From positions 1 to 43,543 of the forward strand of contig LCKC01000006.1 of assembly GCA_001001185.1 (NCBI GenBank): DNA of 43,543 nt, read 5' to 3'. The position numbers were made by a program, and so were the translations under genes. The notes beneath the pieces are model-generated. The model was not told the origin of the DNA and did not search any database. It worked only from the letters and a program-made list of their open reading frames with translations. The stretch is from Parcubacteria group bacterium GW2011_GWB1_45_10. Lineage in GTDB: Bacteria > Patescibacteriota > Minisyncoccia > UBA6257 > Brennerbacteraceae. The first letter of the stretch is position 1, and each line of letters opens with the position of its first letter. Positions 1,862-13,833 of the stretch are shown here, piece by piece.

Positions 1862-3454
1862 ATGGCAGGAAATAACGCTAAAAAACTTGCTCCCCGACCC
1901 GCCAAAAACGAGACTCGCTCAACTTCAGTTGAGCGGCCGCCAGTGGTCGTGATTATGGGCCATGTTGACCACGGCAAAACTTCGCTTTTGGATTACATTA
2001 GAAAAGCCAGGGTCGCAGCCAGAGAGGCGGGCGGCATTACCCAGCATGTCGGCGCTTATGTTGTCAGACATCAAAGTTCAGATGCCGGAAATCAGATGTC
2101 CGATGTCCGAGAAATGAAAGAGATTACTTTCATTGACACGCCTGGCCACGAAGCGTTTTCAAAAATCAGGGAAAGAGGCGCCAAACTCGCGGACATTGCC
2201 GTCCTGGTGATTGCCGCTGAAGAAGGTTTGAAACCGCAAACAAGAGAAGCGCTGAAGCTGATTCAAGACTCAAAAATGCCGTTTGTCATTGCCCTGAACA
2301 AAATTGACCTGCCGAACGCCAACCAAGACAGAGTCAAACAGCAACTGGCTGAGCTTGAAGTTTATGTTGAAGACTGGGGCGGCAAAATCCCCTGCCTTGG
2401 CATCTCGGCCAAAACCGGACAAGGTATCAACGAGCTTTTGGAAATGATTTTGCTGATGGCGGAGATGGAAGAGCTAAAAGCCAGTCCTGAAGCTGAACCC
2501 AAAGGCGTGATTATTGAATCTTCGCTTGAACCCCAGGAAGGCGTTACGGCCACGGCGATTATTCTTGACGGCAAAATATCGCTTGGCCAAACAATCTACA
2601 CTGAAACCGCCGAAGCCAAAATCAAGAGCCTGGAAAATTTCCTTGGCGAAAGAGTCAAGTCTTTAAGCTTTTCTTCGCCGGCCGTGATTACCGGCTGGGA
2701 CAAACAGCCTTTAGTCGGAGAAACGTTTTCGACGCAACCCTCTGACTCCGTTCAAAACAAGCCTGAAGCCCCGGTACCGCAAGAAATAAGCGCAGACGCA
2801 ATAACGCCCGCCTCCACTGAAAATTCCGGCATGGTGAATTCGCCGGCTGGCGGAGAAAAAACTTTTTCTTTGGTCTTGAAAGCAGACGTTGCCGGATCTT
2901 TGGAAGCTTTGGAAGCGATTGTCAACCAGTTGTTTGTCGAAACCGAAATCAAACCAATCATCCAGGAAAAATCCGCCGGGCCGATTAATCTGGCTAACCT
3001 GAAGATCGCCGAATCAACCGGCAGTGTTGTTATCAGCTTCCGTTCAAAAATGAACCTTGACGTGAAAAACTACGCCAAAGACAGGAAAATCAAGATTTTT
3101 GAAAGCGGGATTATTTACGAACTCCAGGAAAAACTCAAAAAGCTTTTGGTGGAAACTCAAAAACCCGACGAAGAAAAAATCTCCGGCCAGCTGGAAATTT
3201 TGGAGATTTTTTCCGAAAAAGACAAGAAAAACCATCAGGTTGTCGGCGGCCGGCTTTTTGAAGGCCGGGTCAAAAAAAATCAGAGATTCAGCTTTAAAAA
3301 GACTGATGGCCAGGTTTTTGACGGCAAGGTTTTGAGCATCAAAAAAGGCAAACAGGCAATGGAGTCTGCCGAAGCGGTTAATGAAATCGGACTCCAGATT
3401 GAAACCTCAGGCGCAGTGGAAAAAGGCGACAATTTTGAGTTCAGGGAAAAATAA
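1862..3454 (+). CDS. infB: translation initiation factor IF-2 (short form without the N-terminal region)
   Basis: G-domain motifs [20 protein letters not shown] and NKID, plus C-terminal IF-2 domains. ATG 1862 (MAGNNAKK) is preferred over the GTG at 1832. Confidence 0.95.
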
Positions 3455-3459
3455 AACCA

Positions 3460-3804
3460 ATGGCGAAAAAAAGAATTGAACGCTTGGAAGAGTTTATTCT
3501 TGAAGAGCTTGGCTTAATCATCAGAAAAGAGTTTGACGATCCGACTTCAAGCTTTATTTCACTGACCCAAGTCCGCCTTGGCTCTGACCTGACCCAGGCA
3601 ACAGTCTATATTTCAATTTTCCCGGACAAACACAAAAACCAGGTCATTGACAGACTCAACCGAGCGCACGGTTTTTTGCAGGCAAAGCTTTATCAGCGGA
3701 TGTCCACTTATAACCTGCCAAAGCTTTATTTCAAATACGACCCGAGCATTGCCCAGAGCGCCAGAATCAACCAGCTGATTGAAAAAAACAAAGAGGAAAA
3801 GTAA
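3460..3804 (+). CDS. rbfA: ribosome-binding factor A
   Basis: 114 aa, directly downstream of infB. The RbfA-like core is ISLTQVRLGSDLTQATVYISIF. Confidence 0.9.
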   Translation: MAKKRIERLEEFILEELGLIIRKEFDDPTSSFISLTQVRLGSDLTQATVYISIFPDKHKNQVIDRLNRAHGFLQAKLYQRMSTYNLPKLYFKYDPSIAQSARINQLIEKNKEEK

Positions 3805-3816
3805 GATGTGGGTATT

Positions 3817-3850
3817 GGCCACGTGGTGAAGTAGCTAACACGGCGGTCTG
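3817..3850 (+). pseudogene. truncated 5' half of tRNA-Cys (nt 1-34 only)
   Basis: Identical to 4128-4161. It diverges after anticodon nt G34, and no 3' half follows. Confidence 0.8.
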
Positions 3851-3890
3851 TCTGGCTGCGCCAGATCTCGCGCAGCGAGACAAAACTCTC

Positions 3891-4145
3891 ATGAAATATT
3901 GCGTTTATGTTCTACGAAGTTTAAGGAATGACGATATTTACGTCGGAAGCACAGAAAACATAGAAAAAAGAATCTCCTTACATAATGCGGGAAAAGTCAG
4001 ATCGACGAAACCAAACAGACCATGGAAACTTTTGGAACATTATGAGTATAATTCAAGAAGCGAAGCTGTAAAACAAGAAGGGTTCTTGAAAACACATCAA
4101 CAGAAAGAGATGATTAAAAGAACGTTTGGCCACGTGGTGAAGTAG
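3891..4145 (+). CDS. GIY-YIG nuclease family protein (small URI/YhbQ-like)
   Basis: 84 aa. YCVYVLRS...IYVGST(x)N...R...HN is the GIY-YIG core. The last six codons and the TAG overlap the 5' end of tRNA-Cys. Confidence 0.85.
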   Translation: MKYCVYVLRSLRNDDIYVGSTENIEKRISLHNAGKVRSTKPNRPWKLLEHYEYNSRSEAVKQEGFLKTHQQKEMIKRTFGHVVK

Positions 4146-4200
4146 CTAACACGGCGGTCTGCAAAACCGCTATTCACCGGTGCAAATCCGGTCGTGGCCT
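4128..4200 (+). tRNA. tRNA-Cys (GCA)
   Basis: Acceptor GGCCACG/CGTGGCC, anticodon arm GCGGT-CTGCAAA-ACCGC, T arm ACCGG-TGCAAAT-CCGGT (unusual G at position 55). CCA is not encoded. Confidence 0.85.
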
Positions 4201-4215
4201 CAGGCAGACGCAATC

Positions 4216-4297
4216 GGGTGAGTGGCGGAACTGGCATACGCGCGGCACTTAAAATGCCGTGGGGTAACCCTTGAGGGTTCGAGTCCCTCCTCACCCA
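4216..4297 (+). tRNA. tRNA-Leu (UAA)
   Basis: Acceptor GGGTGAG/CTCACCC, anticodon arm CGGCA-CTTAAAA-TGCCG, long variable arm, T arm GAGGG-TTCGAGT-CCCTC. Confidence 0.9.
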
Positions 4298-4365
4298 CTA
4301 ACAGGAACTTTGCGCAAAACCATTTTTAGGGAAGAAAAAATTTAAAATCCTTGAAATTGTAATTT

Positions 4366-5118
4366 ATGAATGTCTTAACTCGTCTTTTTATATTTGGAAC
4401 AATTTTTGTTTTAGTACTCGCGACTCTAAATTTGTATAGTGGGAGTTTTGATGTTTTGCGCTGGGCGGTGTTTATATCCGGTTTGGCTCTTATCTACACC
4501 ATCTATCGAAGTGGTACTATTGGGTGGGTTATTGTTTTTACCGCAATCAGCATAGTATTCAATCCGTTTTATCAGTTTTTAAATTTAGAAAAAAATATTT
4601 GGCGAGGGGTGGATGTTTTTGTGATTGTGACATTTTCTATATTTCTCTACCGTTATTATGGCTTATATAAAAAAGGGGTAGAATTTGAAAAATATGTTTC
4701 TTCTTTATTCCCCCATGACATTTGGGTGATTGTAGACCGAACAAAAGATTCTTCAAAAAAACTTGGACGTTTAGTGGAATCAGATACAAATCCAGATTTC
4801 ACTTTTCGGCACATCACAACGGGAAAGATAGTAGCGGTCGAGTGTAAATTTCATTCCTATTTTTACAAAGGTAAGTATGGAGATTCTGGTACTTGGTGGC
4901 GCAAAGATCAGGGAAAACGATATCAAGCTTATGGGGCAGGGCACAAAATACCGGTTTTTGTCGCGATAGGTATTGGCGGGAATCCTAAAAATCCCCAACG
5001 CTTGTTCTTTTGCCCTCTTGAAAAACTCAATAATGTCCCATATGAATTTATTACCGAAACTGATTTGAAACAATTTGAGAGGAAACGTGATGTACAGTTT
5101 TTATCAAATTCTTTCTAA
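4366..5118 (+). CDS. membrane-anchored NERD/Mrr-like PD-(D/E)XK nuclease-fold protein
   Basis: 250 aa. About 4 N-terminal TM helices are followed by GVEFEKYV...(N)PDF...IVAVECKF (E, PD and ExK motifs in the order expected for this fold). Confidence 0.55.
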   Translation: MNVLTRLFIFGTIFVLVLATLNLYSGSFDVLRWAVFISGLALIYTIYRSGTIGWVIVFTAISIVFNPFYQFLNLEKNIWRGVDVFVIVTFSIFLYRYYGLYKKGVEFEKYVSSLFPHDIWVIVDRTKDSSKKLGRLVESDTNPDFTFRHITTGKIVAVECKFHSYFYKGKYGDSGTWWRKDQGKRYQAYGAGHKIPVFVAIGIGGNPKNPQRLFFCPLEKLNNVPYEFITETDLKQFERKRDVQFLSNSF

Positions 5119-10173: not shown

Positions 10174-12586
10174 TGATAAGCCTTCCCAAGCTCAAAAAAA
10201 TGTTCCAGGAAAAATTGTCCAGAAGCTCTTTGAACATTTTATGGCCTTCATGCTTGTATTCAGAGATTGGCTGATGCTGAGCGTAATTTCTCAACCTGAC
10301 GGTGTCGGTTAAGTGTTCCATTGCCTCAAGGTGGTCTGTCCAAAGAATGTCCATAATCTGGAGCAGTCCGACTCTCAAAAACTCCGGGTCTTTCATCTCG
10401 GTTTTTTCAAAGAAAAACTTGGCGACCGATTGTTTCAGACTTTCGGGAGAATCAAACTCGTTTTTCAGACTTTGTGACAGATTAGTCAATGAATCAAGTT
10501 CACGCCAAACCGCATCTTTGTCAAAAGTTTCGCGAACCCGGCTTGAAATAAACAGCTCAAGAGCTTCGTCAATGGTTTTTTTCATAATTTCCTTCAGCTT
10601 TCCGCTATCGGCCGCCAAAATCTCTTTTCGCTTCCGGTAAATGGCATCTCTTTGCTTGTTCAAAACATCGTCATATTCAAGAATGTATTTTCTGGTGTCA
10701 AAGTTCGCGCCTTCAACCTTTTGCTGGGCTGAATCAAGCGCCTTGGAAACAAACTCGCTTTCAATCGGCTGGTCTTCAGGAAGCTTTAATCTCTGAATCA
10801 AACCGCGGATTTTGTCCGAACCGAAGATTCTCATCAAGTCGTCTTCCAAAGAAACAAAAAAAGAGGTTGAACCCGGATCGCCTTGGCGGCCGGAACGCCC
10901 GCGGAGCTGATTGTCAATTCTTCTGGCTTCGTGCCTTTCCGTGCCAATGACGTGAAGTCCGCCAAGACTTTTTATCAAATCTGATTCTTCGGCGGTTGAA
11001 GGATTGCCGCCCAGGATAATGTCCACGCCGCGGCCAGCCATGTTCGTCGCCACCGTGACTGCGCCTTTTTTGCCGGCTTGGGCAATCACCTCGGCTTCTT
11101 TTTCGTGCTGCTTGGCGTTTAAAACATTATGAGAGACACCCTGTCTTTTGAGCAAAGCTGACAGATGCTCGTTTTTTTCAATCGAAACCGTGCCGATTAA
11201 AACCGGCTGGCCTTTTTCATGCTTGTCTTTAACTTCTTTTACCAGCCAGTCAAACTTCGCTTTTTCCGTGACAAAAATCTTGTCGGAAAAATCCTTCCTG
11301 ACCAAAGGCTTATTCGGCGGAATCGGCAAAACATCCAGAAAATAAACCTTGGCAAACTCTTCACTTGAGGTCAGGGCCGTGCCGGTCATGCCGGAAAGAA
11401 TCTGATACATCCTGAAGTAATTCTGAATCGTGATGGTTGCTGAGGTCCGTGACTCTTCCTGGACGCGCAAGCCTTCTTTGGCTTCAATCGCTTGGTGCAG
11501 GCCGCCCGAATACCTCCGGCCGTGCATCAACCTGCCGGTGAACTCGTCGACAATGACGACTTCGCCGTCTTTGACAACGTAATTTTTGTCCCGCTTGAAC
11601 AAAAAATAAGCTTTCAAAGACTCTTCAAGGTGGTGAACCAAAACCAGATTATTGTCTTCGTAAATATCCCGGCCAAAAAGATCTTTGATTCTTTCAATCC
11701 CGGAATCCGTCAAAAACACAGAGTGCTTTTTTTCGTCAATCTCAACGTCTTTTTCCGCGTTCAAGCGGGGAACCGCCAAGGCAAACTCCCGATAAATCTT
11801 GGCGGCGTCCATGTCGGGCGAAGCAATAATCAAAGGCGTTCGGGCTTCGTCAATCAAAATACTGTCAACTTCGTCAATAATCGCAAAATAAAGCTCGCGC
11901 TGGGCCAGGTCGTCTTTCCGGTAAACCAAATTGTCTCTGAGGTAATCAAAACCGAACTGATGGTTGGTGCCATAGACAATCTCGGCCTGATAAACTTCTC
12001 TTCTTGAAACCGGCCTCAAAAAATCGTGAAAAACTTTGAAGCTGCCCAAGCTATCTCTTTGCCTGTCTTCCTGGGGTTCGCTCTTCCACTCGGGGTCGTA
12101 CAAAAAAGAGTTTTCATGGATCAAGCAGCCGACTTTGAGTCCCAAGAAGTGATAGATCTGTCCCATCCAAACCGTGTCACGCTGAGCCAGATAATCATTG
12201 ACCGTAATGATATGAACGCCCTTGCCGGTCAGGCCGTGAAGATAAGCCGGCAGGGTCGCGGCCAAAGTTTTGCCTTCGCCGGTTTTCATTTCCGCAATCT
12301 TCCCCTGGCTCAAAACCGCGCCGCCGACAATCTGCGAATCAAAATGTCTCTGGTTCAAAGTTCTTTTGGCGGCTTCCCTGACCAAAGCAAAAGCTTCCGG
12401 CATGAGCGTTTCCAGAGATTCGTTTTCCGCCCTTGCCTTCAACTCAAGGCTTTTTGCCTGAATCGCTTTGGCATCAAGCGAAGAAAAATCTTTTTCCAGT
12501 TCATTAACCGACTTAACCAAAGGCAAGAGCTTTTCAATCGCTTTTTGATTTGCGTCTTTAAAAATTGTTTTGAAAACTTTCAGCAC
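10154..12586 (-). CDS. secA: preprotein translocase ATPase SecA (no C-terminal Zn-finger tail)
   Basis: 810 aa. Motifs MKTGEGKTL, DEVDSILIDEARTPLIIS and TNMAGRGVDI. The GTG start abuts the hpf stop codon. Confidence 0.97.
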   Translation of the reverse strand: MLKVFKTIFKDANQKAIEKLLPLVKSVNELEKDFSSLDAKAIQAKSLELKARAENESLETLMPEAFALVREAAKRTLNQRHFDSQIVGGAVLSQGKIAEMKTGEGKTLAATLPAYLHGLTGKGVHIITVNDYLAQRDTVWMGQIYHFLGLKVGCLIHENSFLYDPEWKSEPQEDRQRDSLGSFKVFHDFLRPVSRREVYQAEIVYGTNHQFGFDYLRDNLVYRKDDLAQRELYFAIIDEVDSILIDEARTPLIIASPDMDAAKIYREFALAVPRLNAEKDVEIDEKKHSVFLTDSGIERIKDLFGRDIYEDNNLVLVHHLEESLKAYFLFKRDKNYVVKDGEVVIVDEFTGRLMHGRRYSGGLHQAIEAKEGLRVQEESRTSATITIQNYFRMYQILSGMTGTALTSSEEFAKVYFLDVLPIPPNKPLVRKDFSDKIFVTEKAKFDWLVKEVKDKHEKGQPVLIGTVSIEKNEHLSALLKRQGVSHNVLNAKQHEKEAEVIAQAGKKGAVTVATNMAGRGVDIILGGNPSTAEESDLIKSLGGLHVIGTERHEARRIDNQLRGRSGRQGDPGSTSFFVSLEDDLMRIFGSDKIRGLIQRLKLPEDQPIESEFVSKALDSAQQKVEGANFDTRKYILEYDDVLNKQRDAIYRKRKEILAADSGKLKEIMKKTIDEALELFISSRVRETFDKDAVWRELDSLTNLSQSLKNEFDSPESLKQSVAKFFFEKTEMKDPEFLRVGLLQIMDILWTDHLEAMEHLTDTVRLRNYAQHQPISEYKHEGHKMFKELLDNFSWNIFLSLGRLIKVIVIL

Positions 12587-13701: not shown

Positions 13702-13768
13702 GCCTTTTAGTGAGTGCCGTTCAATTAGTTGCGCAAGCAGCCAAGAGAACAGCTCCAATCGTATGTGA

Positions 13769-13799
13769 CTACGCTCCCGCTCTGCGGGAGCGTAGTTTT
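13769..13799 (+). terminator. strong intrinsic terminator inside the leader of 13834..15213
   Basis: 12-bp stem CTACGCTCCCGC/GCGGGAGCGTAG, loop TCT, then TTTT. It lies 35 nt before the ATG. Confidence 0.8.
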
Positions 13800-13833
13800 G
13801 TGATACGCAGATTTTTTTGCTATGATTGAATAA

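Follow-up and report, generated by a model that had tools for sequence, protein, structure and literature searches.

The 43,543-nucleotide (nt) contig LCKC01000006.1 of Parcubacteria group bacterium GW2011_GWB1_45_10 (hereafter, the window) has a small GIY-YIG nuclease gene between rbfA and the tRNA-Leu(UAA) gene, flanked by a truncated 5' half copy and an intact copy of tRNA-Cys(GCA). Here it is proposed, as the fairly probable explanation, that this locus is a compact, insertion sequence (IS)-like selfish cassette, possibly partly domesticated, in which an Ssn-type GIY-YIG nuclease is nested in tRNA-Cys together with its own double-hairpin module. It is recognized by its anatomy, its recurrence across genomes, the covariation of its hairpins, the split and mosaic tRNA fragments around it, the empty sites of relatives and the homology of its protein to hairpin nucleases.

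The segments 3815-3850 and 4126-4161 form an exact direct repeat (36/36 nt), as claimed in an initial annotation made from the letters of the DNA, and they are not a chance match, since the second-longest exact direct repeat within the surrounding 1.4 kb has only 13 nt. The placement of tRNA-Cys by ARAGORN and Rfam confirms that each copy corresponds to 2 nt of flank plus tRNA-Cys nt 1-34 (Table 1). The two copies part after G34, continuing as TCTGGC in the upstream copy and as CAAAAC in the downstream one, and they stop matching at 34/35 because a 30-nt palindromic module, a double hairpin at 3851-3880, is inserted there, exactly at the breakpoint of the truncated copy. The annotation had the duplication ending inside the anticodon, which stands for the end of the match at G34/C35; however, it overlooked the hairpin pair inserted at that point and the tRNA-like CAAAAC that resumes after it. 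Following CAAAAC, the sequence reads TCTCAT vs CGCTAT in the resident tRNA (CAAAACCGCTAT), a continuation similar to the tRNA-Cys of other lineages (e.g., L001; loci of other genomes are designated here with L numbers), and four bases separate CAAAAC from the ATG of the nuclease open reading frame (ORF). This single 84-amino acid (aa) GIY-YIG ORF is, as annotated, the only family-matching ORF between the copies, and its final 18 nt are read from the 5' end of the intact tRNA-Cys, which accounts for five codons and the stop (GHVVK and stop), instead of the six codons counted previously.

The truncated half starts 12 nt past the rbfA stop, which is the place of tRNA-Cys at empty sites, and the intact copy is separated by 14 nt from tRNA-Leu. 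With the half copy at the old tRNA-Cys place and the intact copy abutting tRNA-Leu, the extra 311 nt are within the old gene, and neither a right-hand hairpin module nor a 3' half copy would fit into the 14-nt gap. The intact tRNA-Cys(GCA) is presumably the functional copy, in agreement with the earlier suggestion that a working tRNA is kept beside the partial one through a spare tRNA part. The promoter-like site directly 5' of the truncated half is probably the ancestral tRNA-Cys promoter, as TTGAAA-17-TAGTAT is found in the same place 5' of tRNA-Cys in L092 and L095 (by eye, as a consensus match only). An assembly artefact, which the annotation had raised as an objection, was ruled out: 21 contigs encode the exact RbfA protein of the window, and the 561-nt interval from rbfA to the DUF6804 gene is identical, with 0 mismatches, in seven independent assemblies from ENA, JGI and NCBI (including GCA_003521685.1 and GCA_001002095.1). 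Two short contigs stop inside the repeat, as expected of a repeat-induced break.

The same 30-nt module, located after ...CTG and before CAAA, was found in 21 loci in addition to the window. In the alignment of 21 modules, the two-hairpin structure has 99.6% of its cells paired, with compensatory changes in 8 of the 12 pairs, and a covariation score of 0.469, compared to 0.13 for shuffles and at most 0.095 for slid-partner controls. One long hairpin over the same nucleotides was less well supported, with 85.7% of cells paired. Hairpin 2 corresponds in type to the reverse complement of hairpin 1 (TNC and GNA loops, with AGATCT at the junction), so that each DNA strand offers one TCTSSC-TNC-GSSAGA hairpin, a strand symmetry that would favor a role of the hairpins at the DNA level over one at the RNA level. 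Similar hairpins or hairpin pairs interrupt pseudo-tRNA copies at the D arm, the anticodon loop and the T loop, and those in the anticodon loop are always inserted after ...TG, which corresponds to G34/C35 in tRNA-Cys and tRNA-Ser(GCU) and to G35/A36 in tRNA-Ser(UGA). In L077, a whole pseudo-tRNA-Ser contains a hairpin pair in each of these three loops. In 5 of 8 loci the left module shares at least 94% identity with the right module of the same locus, vs a between-locus mean of 74.5%, and none of 5000 permutations reached the observed within-locus identity.

Copies of the module were also observed outside tRNA genes. In L007, a 30-nt module (TCTCCCTTCGGGAGATCTCCCGAAGGGAGA, positions 1544-1573) is in frame in infB, where it lengthens a loop of the IF-2 G domain by GLPSGDLPKGD, and a second module lies between genes, away from the cassette. 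Judging from this infB copy and from the tandem cassettes of L011 and L073, the modules seem to behave as small mobile palindromes. In the window, infB itself has an unusually long insertion in that G-domain loop (2064-2103), whose DNA includes a weak 16-nt inverted repeat (75% complementary); this may be a decayed palindromic insertion, or chance.

The relatives of the protein were collected from one genome per species, with 596 loci encoding them, of which the best 80 were fetched. Among the matches listed there are 90 protein relatives, mostly from Parcubacteria-type lineages of the Candidate Phyla Radiation (CPR). In 75 of the 80 loci the ORF has a tRNA gene no more than 130 nt away, always on the same strand and never on the opposite one, and three of the five loci with no near tRNA are at contig ends. 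The neighbor is tRNA-Cys in 54 of the 80, directly 3' of the ORF in 51 of these 54, and it is usually followed by tRNA-Leu(UAA). On the far side of the ORF, there is usually an incomplete copy of the tRNA concerned. Exact collinear tRNA matches of at least 16 nt were found in 44 of the 73 loci that have an adjacent tRNA under a stricter ORF-based criterion, and the 5' match of tRNA-Cys stops exactly at nt 34 in 20 loci and the window, with no match running through 34/35 among the tRNA-Cys loci examined. The association of a nuclease cassette with the tRNA-Cys anticodon loop, proposed in the annotation from a single locus, thus recurs in about 55 CPR loci. Additionally, the possibility of the same cassette at other tRNAs was borne out by distant relatives (Ignavibacteriota, Bacteroidota, Omnitrophota and others), which have an analogous form beside Ser, Asn, Arg, Ala, Gly, Glu and Gln tRNAs.

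Tandem arrangements were also found. L011 has a second cassette 5' of the main one (2572-2700), in which pseudo-tRNA-Cys nt 1-24 and a hairpin pair accompany a distinct GIY-YIG ORF (MYYVYVLLSKPDKNWFYVGF...). In L073, from Melioribacter sp. Ez-97, the segment 2508-3566 has three tandem units behind an intact tRNA-Ser(CGA), each with an 81-aa GIY-YIG ORF, shortened to 65 aa in the third; the first two units end in a 3' pseudo-tRNA part with TGCGTAGCA TCCTACGGA, a mini double hairpin, in the T loop.

The relatives display a full and a reduced form of the cassette. The full form consists, in order, of the resident 5' half (nt 1-34), hairpins, a stub of nt 35-46, the ORF, the intact tRNA-Cys, a stub ending at nt 34, hairpins again and the resident 3' half (nt 35-76). 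Its right side, in which the intact tRNA-Cys is followed by ...GGTCTG, a hairpin pair and CAAAAC with the 3' half, is present in at least 15 CPR loci under a strict pattern, and in about 19 by eye. The reduced form, having a gap of at most 21 nt before tRNA-Leu, is that of the window and of L006, L008, L009, L022, L029, L032, L035, L039, L047 and L048. In three loci the acceptor strands of the outer halves, read by hand, are complementary to one another and unlike that of the intact tRNA enclosed by them: GGTGCAG/CTGCACC vs GGCGCGA in L007, GGCCTGG/CCAGGCC vs GGCGCCG in L018, and GGCCAGG/CCTGGCC vs GGTCACG in L005, which also has a third, different 3' fragment and with it three alleles in one locus. 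Such a pattern is what a tRNA-Cys gene would look like if split at 34/35 by a unit that brought its own tRNA-Cys along with pieces of earlier hosts.

Empty sites in relatives, anticipated in the annotation, were found through RbfA homologs and their contigs. L095-L097 (RbfA 71% identical) have rbfA, 16 nt, tRNA-Cys, 6 nt and tRNA-Leu, with no ORF and no half copy, and the distance from rbfA to tRNA-Cys is 14-16 nt in L092 and L095. A metagenome scan with RbfA for empty sites returned one distant locus only, without a tRNA. The identities of tRNA-Cys and tRNA-Leu, compared for signs of co-transfer, disagree with the RbfA distances in both directions. The space between tRNA-Cys and tRNA-Leu has other occupants: L092 and L093 (RbfA 76%) have an HNH-type nuclease ORF there (1945-2482 in L092), as do L099 (2244-2753), L013 and L023, and L098 has a 59-aa ORF in the same position. 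These HNH ORFs occur with or without the GIY-YIG cassette, and the tRNA-Cys/tRNA-Leu pair appears to be a hotspot of free-standing nuclease genes.

The 84-aa protein is covered by Pfam PF01541 (GIY-YIG) over residues 2-72, and in the family alignment of 53 sequences Y17, R27, H31 and E63 are invariant, with Y6 at least 90% conserved. It is a single-domain protein below the 150-aa limit applied to the Ssn family, with no added DNA-binding domain, and its relatives have 74-119 aa. By sequence comparison, the closest characterized relatives appear to be the Ssn nucleases (CDD cd10448; Chenal et al. 2025, PMC11893778), single-domain GIY-YIG proteins of about 94 aa with catalytic Y6, Y17 and E64, whose binding to a GC-rich hairpin (NTS/SRM) is restricted to single-stranded DNA and which cleave a few nucleotides upstream of the hairpin. 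Ssn genes typically have their hairpins on either side, which gives an IS-like layout, and in Neisseria the SsnA/NTS system modulates transformation; the mobility of these gene-plus-hairpin units is put forward there as a hypothesis only, and tRNA is nowhere mentioned (PMC11893778). Against a comparison set of three NTS-flanked Ssn-type proteins (NTS-gene-NTS units from viral-contig data; L194, L136, L102), the family profile gave an hhalign probability of 97.6% (E 4e-12, 32% identity over 65 columns). Like the Ssn units, the cassettes have a single-domain GIY-YIG protein (84-100 aa) whose catalytic positions agree (Y6, Y17, E63/64) and a gene directly flanked by GC-rich hairpins, in a hairpin-gene-hairpin IS-like layout. 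In contrast, their hairpins are of another class (TCTSSC-TNC-GSSAGA, in dyad pairs), are local instead of occurring hundreds of times, and the gene lies within a tRNA gene that is accompanied by tRNA copies interrupted by hairpins.

Taking the selfish cassette as the preferred explanation, a route for its mobility can be inferred, although any particular scheme of strand exchange deserves much less confidence than the overall interpretation. The tRNA-Cys gene would have been interrupted exactly at G34/C35 by a unit supplying a replacement tRNA, and the old tRNA promoter would transcribe the half-tRNA, hairpins, ORF, tRNA-Cys and tRNA-Leu together. The nuclease would bind its own hairpins, one per strand, when the DNA becomes single-stranded during replication or DNA uptake, and nick beside them; the breaks could promote recombination via the tRNA-derived segments, serving as portable homology arms, by which the cassette would be copied into empty tRNA genes or rearranged. 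The host would tolerate it because an intact tRNA is always regenerated. The reduced form of the window could have lost the right module and the 3' half through recombination between two 3' halves, and the 36-nt identity ending at G34 may reflect a recent duplication, or gene conversion unable to pass the inserted hairpins.

Several observations weigh against this interpretation. The outer halves of L002, L015, L024 and L025 are not complementary (by eye), and the history of these loci is more tangled than a single clean insertion. The two 5' halves of the window are identical, and in L030 and L035 the 5' identity extends 8-12 nt into the flank; on these two points, a duplication in situ is as good a fit as an imported tRNA part. 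Such duplication, and gene conversion too, probably had a share in these loci. In the all-against-all comparison of locus DNA, no cross-genome pair exceeded 77% identity, so that the ends of a mobile unit cannot be read from a fresh insertion. In the 43.5-kb window tblastn found no further copy of the ORF and the double hairpin has no other occurrence; a single-copy cassette with a unique module is possibly a sign of long-term vertical retention with a host function. Furthermore, when the family profile was compared to PDB, the UPF0213 proteins BH0048 (E 2.6e-12) and EF2693 (E 1.4e-10) were followed by SLX1, which makes UPF0213 about as close as the Ssn-type proteins and the Ssn placement of the protein tentative. 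The published SRM pattern has no match in any CPR cassette, and among cassette loci only L063 has a canonical NTS nearby.

That locus has an inverted pair of canonical Neisseria-type NTS (TGTCATTCCCGCGAAAGCGGGAATCCAG and its partner, 238-306) about 230 nt 5' of the cassette, which is itself nested at tRNA-Ser with its own, different hairpins. In the window, the sole match of the SRM pattern (11746-11776, CGTCTTTTTCCGCGTTCAAGCGGGGAACCGC) is a weak palindrome with no GIY-YIG gene near and is probably due to chance.

The initial annotation had pointed to a homing endonuclease as one of two readings. A classical free-standing GIY-YIG enzyme of this type would cut the anticodon loop of tRNA-Cys in duplex DNA and be copied by double-strand-break repair, leaving the half-tRNA as a by-product. 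Consistent with it are the presence/absence variation at the site, with an uninterrupted rbfA-tRNA-Cys-tRNA-Leu order in L095-L097, the HNH nuclease genes in the same tRNA-Cys/tRNA-Leu locus of relatives, and a weak NCBIfam match to group I intron endonucleases (26.5 bits, under the cutoff of 56). Phage T4 SegB is a similar case, a GIY-YIG homing enzyme encoded in a tRNA cluster that behaves as selfish DNA (PMC2330249). However, the 84-aa protein is taken up by the GIY-YIG domain over residues 2-72 and is without the DNA-binding domain of characterized homing enzymes, the intact, identical target in the live tRNA-Cys 275 bp away would be cut, and the conserved, covarying hairpins would have no role. 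Seg and I-TevI-type enzymes have a DNA-binding domain and cut duplex DNA, and they are not known to possess cognate hairpins or to leave the target gene partially copied. The Ssn relatives, in contrast, leave duplex DNA uncut (PMC11893778). Homing is therefore considered unlikely, and from the earlier label the nuclease-gene cassette is retained, while the homing enzyme is replaced by a bare catalytic core with Ssn as its closest characterized relatives.

It is likewise rather unlikely that the locus is a domesticated host system, e.g., one limiting recombination or DNA uptake at the tRNA operon in the manner of SsnA/NTS in Neisseria, with the pseudo-tRNA pieces as fossils of one ancient event. 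The conservation of the catalytic residues across 53 sequences, the single copy in the window, the absence of close cross-genome pairs in the comparison described above and the modulation of transformation by SsnA (PMC11893778) would agree with such a role, but close relatives lack the cassette, cassettes are found at many different tRNAs, fragments of two or three tRNA-Cys alleles occur in single loci, and there are tandem arrays.

A degenerate group I or other tRNA intron, or the intron relic that the annotation offered on the grounds that bacterial tRNA introns are found in the anticodon loop, is highly improbable. The permissive Rfam search of 3300-4700 (E up to 10) returned the two tRNAs and chance-level matches only (14 bits for an intron), with no group I/II intron and, with it, no trace of the ribozyme fold considered there. 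The non-coding stretch between G34 and the ATG is 3851-3890, 40 nt only, which upholds the remark that there is no room for a ribozyme core. In group I splicing the final base of the exon has to be a U, for the U-G pair, whereas the base before the breakpoint (3850) is a G; the downstream tRNA is complete on its own, and relatives show separate 5' and 3' pseudo-halves around a whole tRNA. The anticodon loop is also a known crossover sublocation of tRNA-targeting integrative elements. A remnant of an integrase-mediated island (attL/attR) formerly in tRNA-Cys can be dismissed as very improbable because, while such elements typically leave behind a complete tRNA copy together with a partial one (PMC9897764 and Williams 2002 cited therein), here no integrase lies between the repeats, where the GIY-YIG is the only family-matching ORF, the cargo is merely 275 bp (a cassette of about 0.3 kb, not kilobases), the duplicated tRNA part is the 5' half and not the 3' one, hairpins are at the junction, and 75 of 80 loci repeat this small ORF with its hairpins.

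As in IS200/IS605, REP/RAYT and the Rickettsia palindromic elements (RPE; PMC10969869), the selfish cassette has small palindromes of the kind recognized as single-stranded hairpins; it shares with REP/RAYT the pairing of a gene with its repeats, and with RPE the insertion in frame into genes, compare the infB module of L007. Unlike IS200/IS605 and REP/RAYT, which rely on HUH tyrosine transposases, the partner ORF of the cassette is a GIY-YIG and there is no HUH/Y1. The mobilizing enzyme of RPE is not known, and a GIY-YIG nuclease alone cannot rejoin DNA. A mobile GIY-YIG ORF in the mitochondrial atp6 of Allomyces, reported by Paquin et al. in 1994, is said to carry a replacement gene end; there too a nuclease gene in an essential gene reportedly brings a spare part and the old part becomes a pseudo-fragment, whereas the target is said to be protein-coding and mitochondrial, the enzyme large and hairpin modules absent.

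In the searchable literature, no description of tRNA-nested small GIY-YIG genes or hairpin-interrupted tRNA copies was found, which agrees with the statement of the annotation that no element of this architecture was known to it; searches with the protein gave two weak matches only among plasmids and no match in PHROGs. The nuclease-plus-hairpin kind has been known since 2025; the nesting in tRNA, the hairpin-interrupted tRNA copies and the carried spare tRNA part appear to be new. Tentatively, and with less confidence than the cassette at this locus, these units may form a new class of mobile element across several phyla, in which a GIY-YIG nuclease specific for single-stranded DNA hairpins resides in tRNA genes, enters at the anticodon loop (G34/C35 in tRNA-Cys/tRNA-Ser) and carries a spare tRNA or half as both rescue and homology arm, with the 30-nt double hairpin as a non-autonomous mini-element that can also land in frame in an essential gene, as in infB.

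With this layout, selfish DNA can occupy a gene that is essential and conserved universally; no intron is needed, since the displaced part is carried along. The layout also gives rise to tRNA half-genes and to pseudo-tRNAs riddled with hairpins, which will be misread by annotation pipelines. The split tRNA genes, multi-allele loci, empty sites and tandem arrays are natural insertion records, and the question of mobility is thereby directly testable; Melioribacter sp. Ez-97 appears to be an isolate genome and is a possible experimental host, apparently cultured and carrying such cassettes. Additionally, the hairpin consensus TCTSSC-TNC-GSSAGA and the small enzymes could widen the specificities of the single-stranded DNA toolbox.

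Table 1. Features of the tRNA-Cys locus and its neighbors in the window
Feature	Position	Strand	Evidence or description
rbfA	3460..3804	+	Pfam RBFA E 8.7e-26; upstream neighbor
Promoter-like site TTGAAA-17-TAAGAT	3779..3807	+	Consensus scan; directly 5' of the truncated half
Repeat copy 1	3815..3850	+	2 nt flank and truncated tRNA-Cys 5' half (nt 1-34 = 3817-3850)
Hairpin 1	3851..3865	.	TCTGGC-TGC-GCCAGA; 6-bp stem, TNC-type loop
Hairpin 2	3866..3880	.	TCTCGC-GCA-GCGAGA; GNA-type loop
Stub CAAAACTCTC	3881..3890	+	CAAAAC (3881-3886) = tRNA nt 35-40
GIY-YIG nuclease gene, 84 aa, single domain	3891..4145	+	Pfam GIY-YIG E 2.9e-15
Repeat copy 2	4126..4161	+	2 nt flank and nt 1-34 of intact tRNA-Cys
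Intact tRNA-Cys(GCA)	4128..4201	+	ARAGORN; Rfam tRNA 61.4 bits
tRNA-Leu(UAA)	4216..4298	+	ARAGORN, Rfam; conserved partner 3' of tRNA-Cys

The nearest named RbfA is from Candidatus Brennerbacteria (71% identity), and the organism belongs to the CPR/Patescibacteria. The next gene (4366-5118) encodes 250 aa with an N-terminal DUF6804 membrane part and, by eye, a C-terminal D...ECK pattern (VIVDRTKD...VAVECKFH), suggestive of a PD-(D/E)xK nuclease fold. Elsewhere in the window, a strong GC-rich hairpin at 13767-13800 (gactacgcTCCCGCTCTGCGGGAgcgtag), followed by TTTTG, looks like an intrinsic terminator; its TC...GA hairpin at 13775, the one other of this type in the window, is a longer terminator-like stem, unrelated to the hairpins of the cassette.

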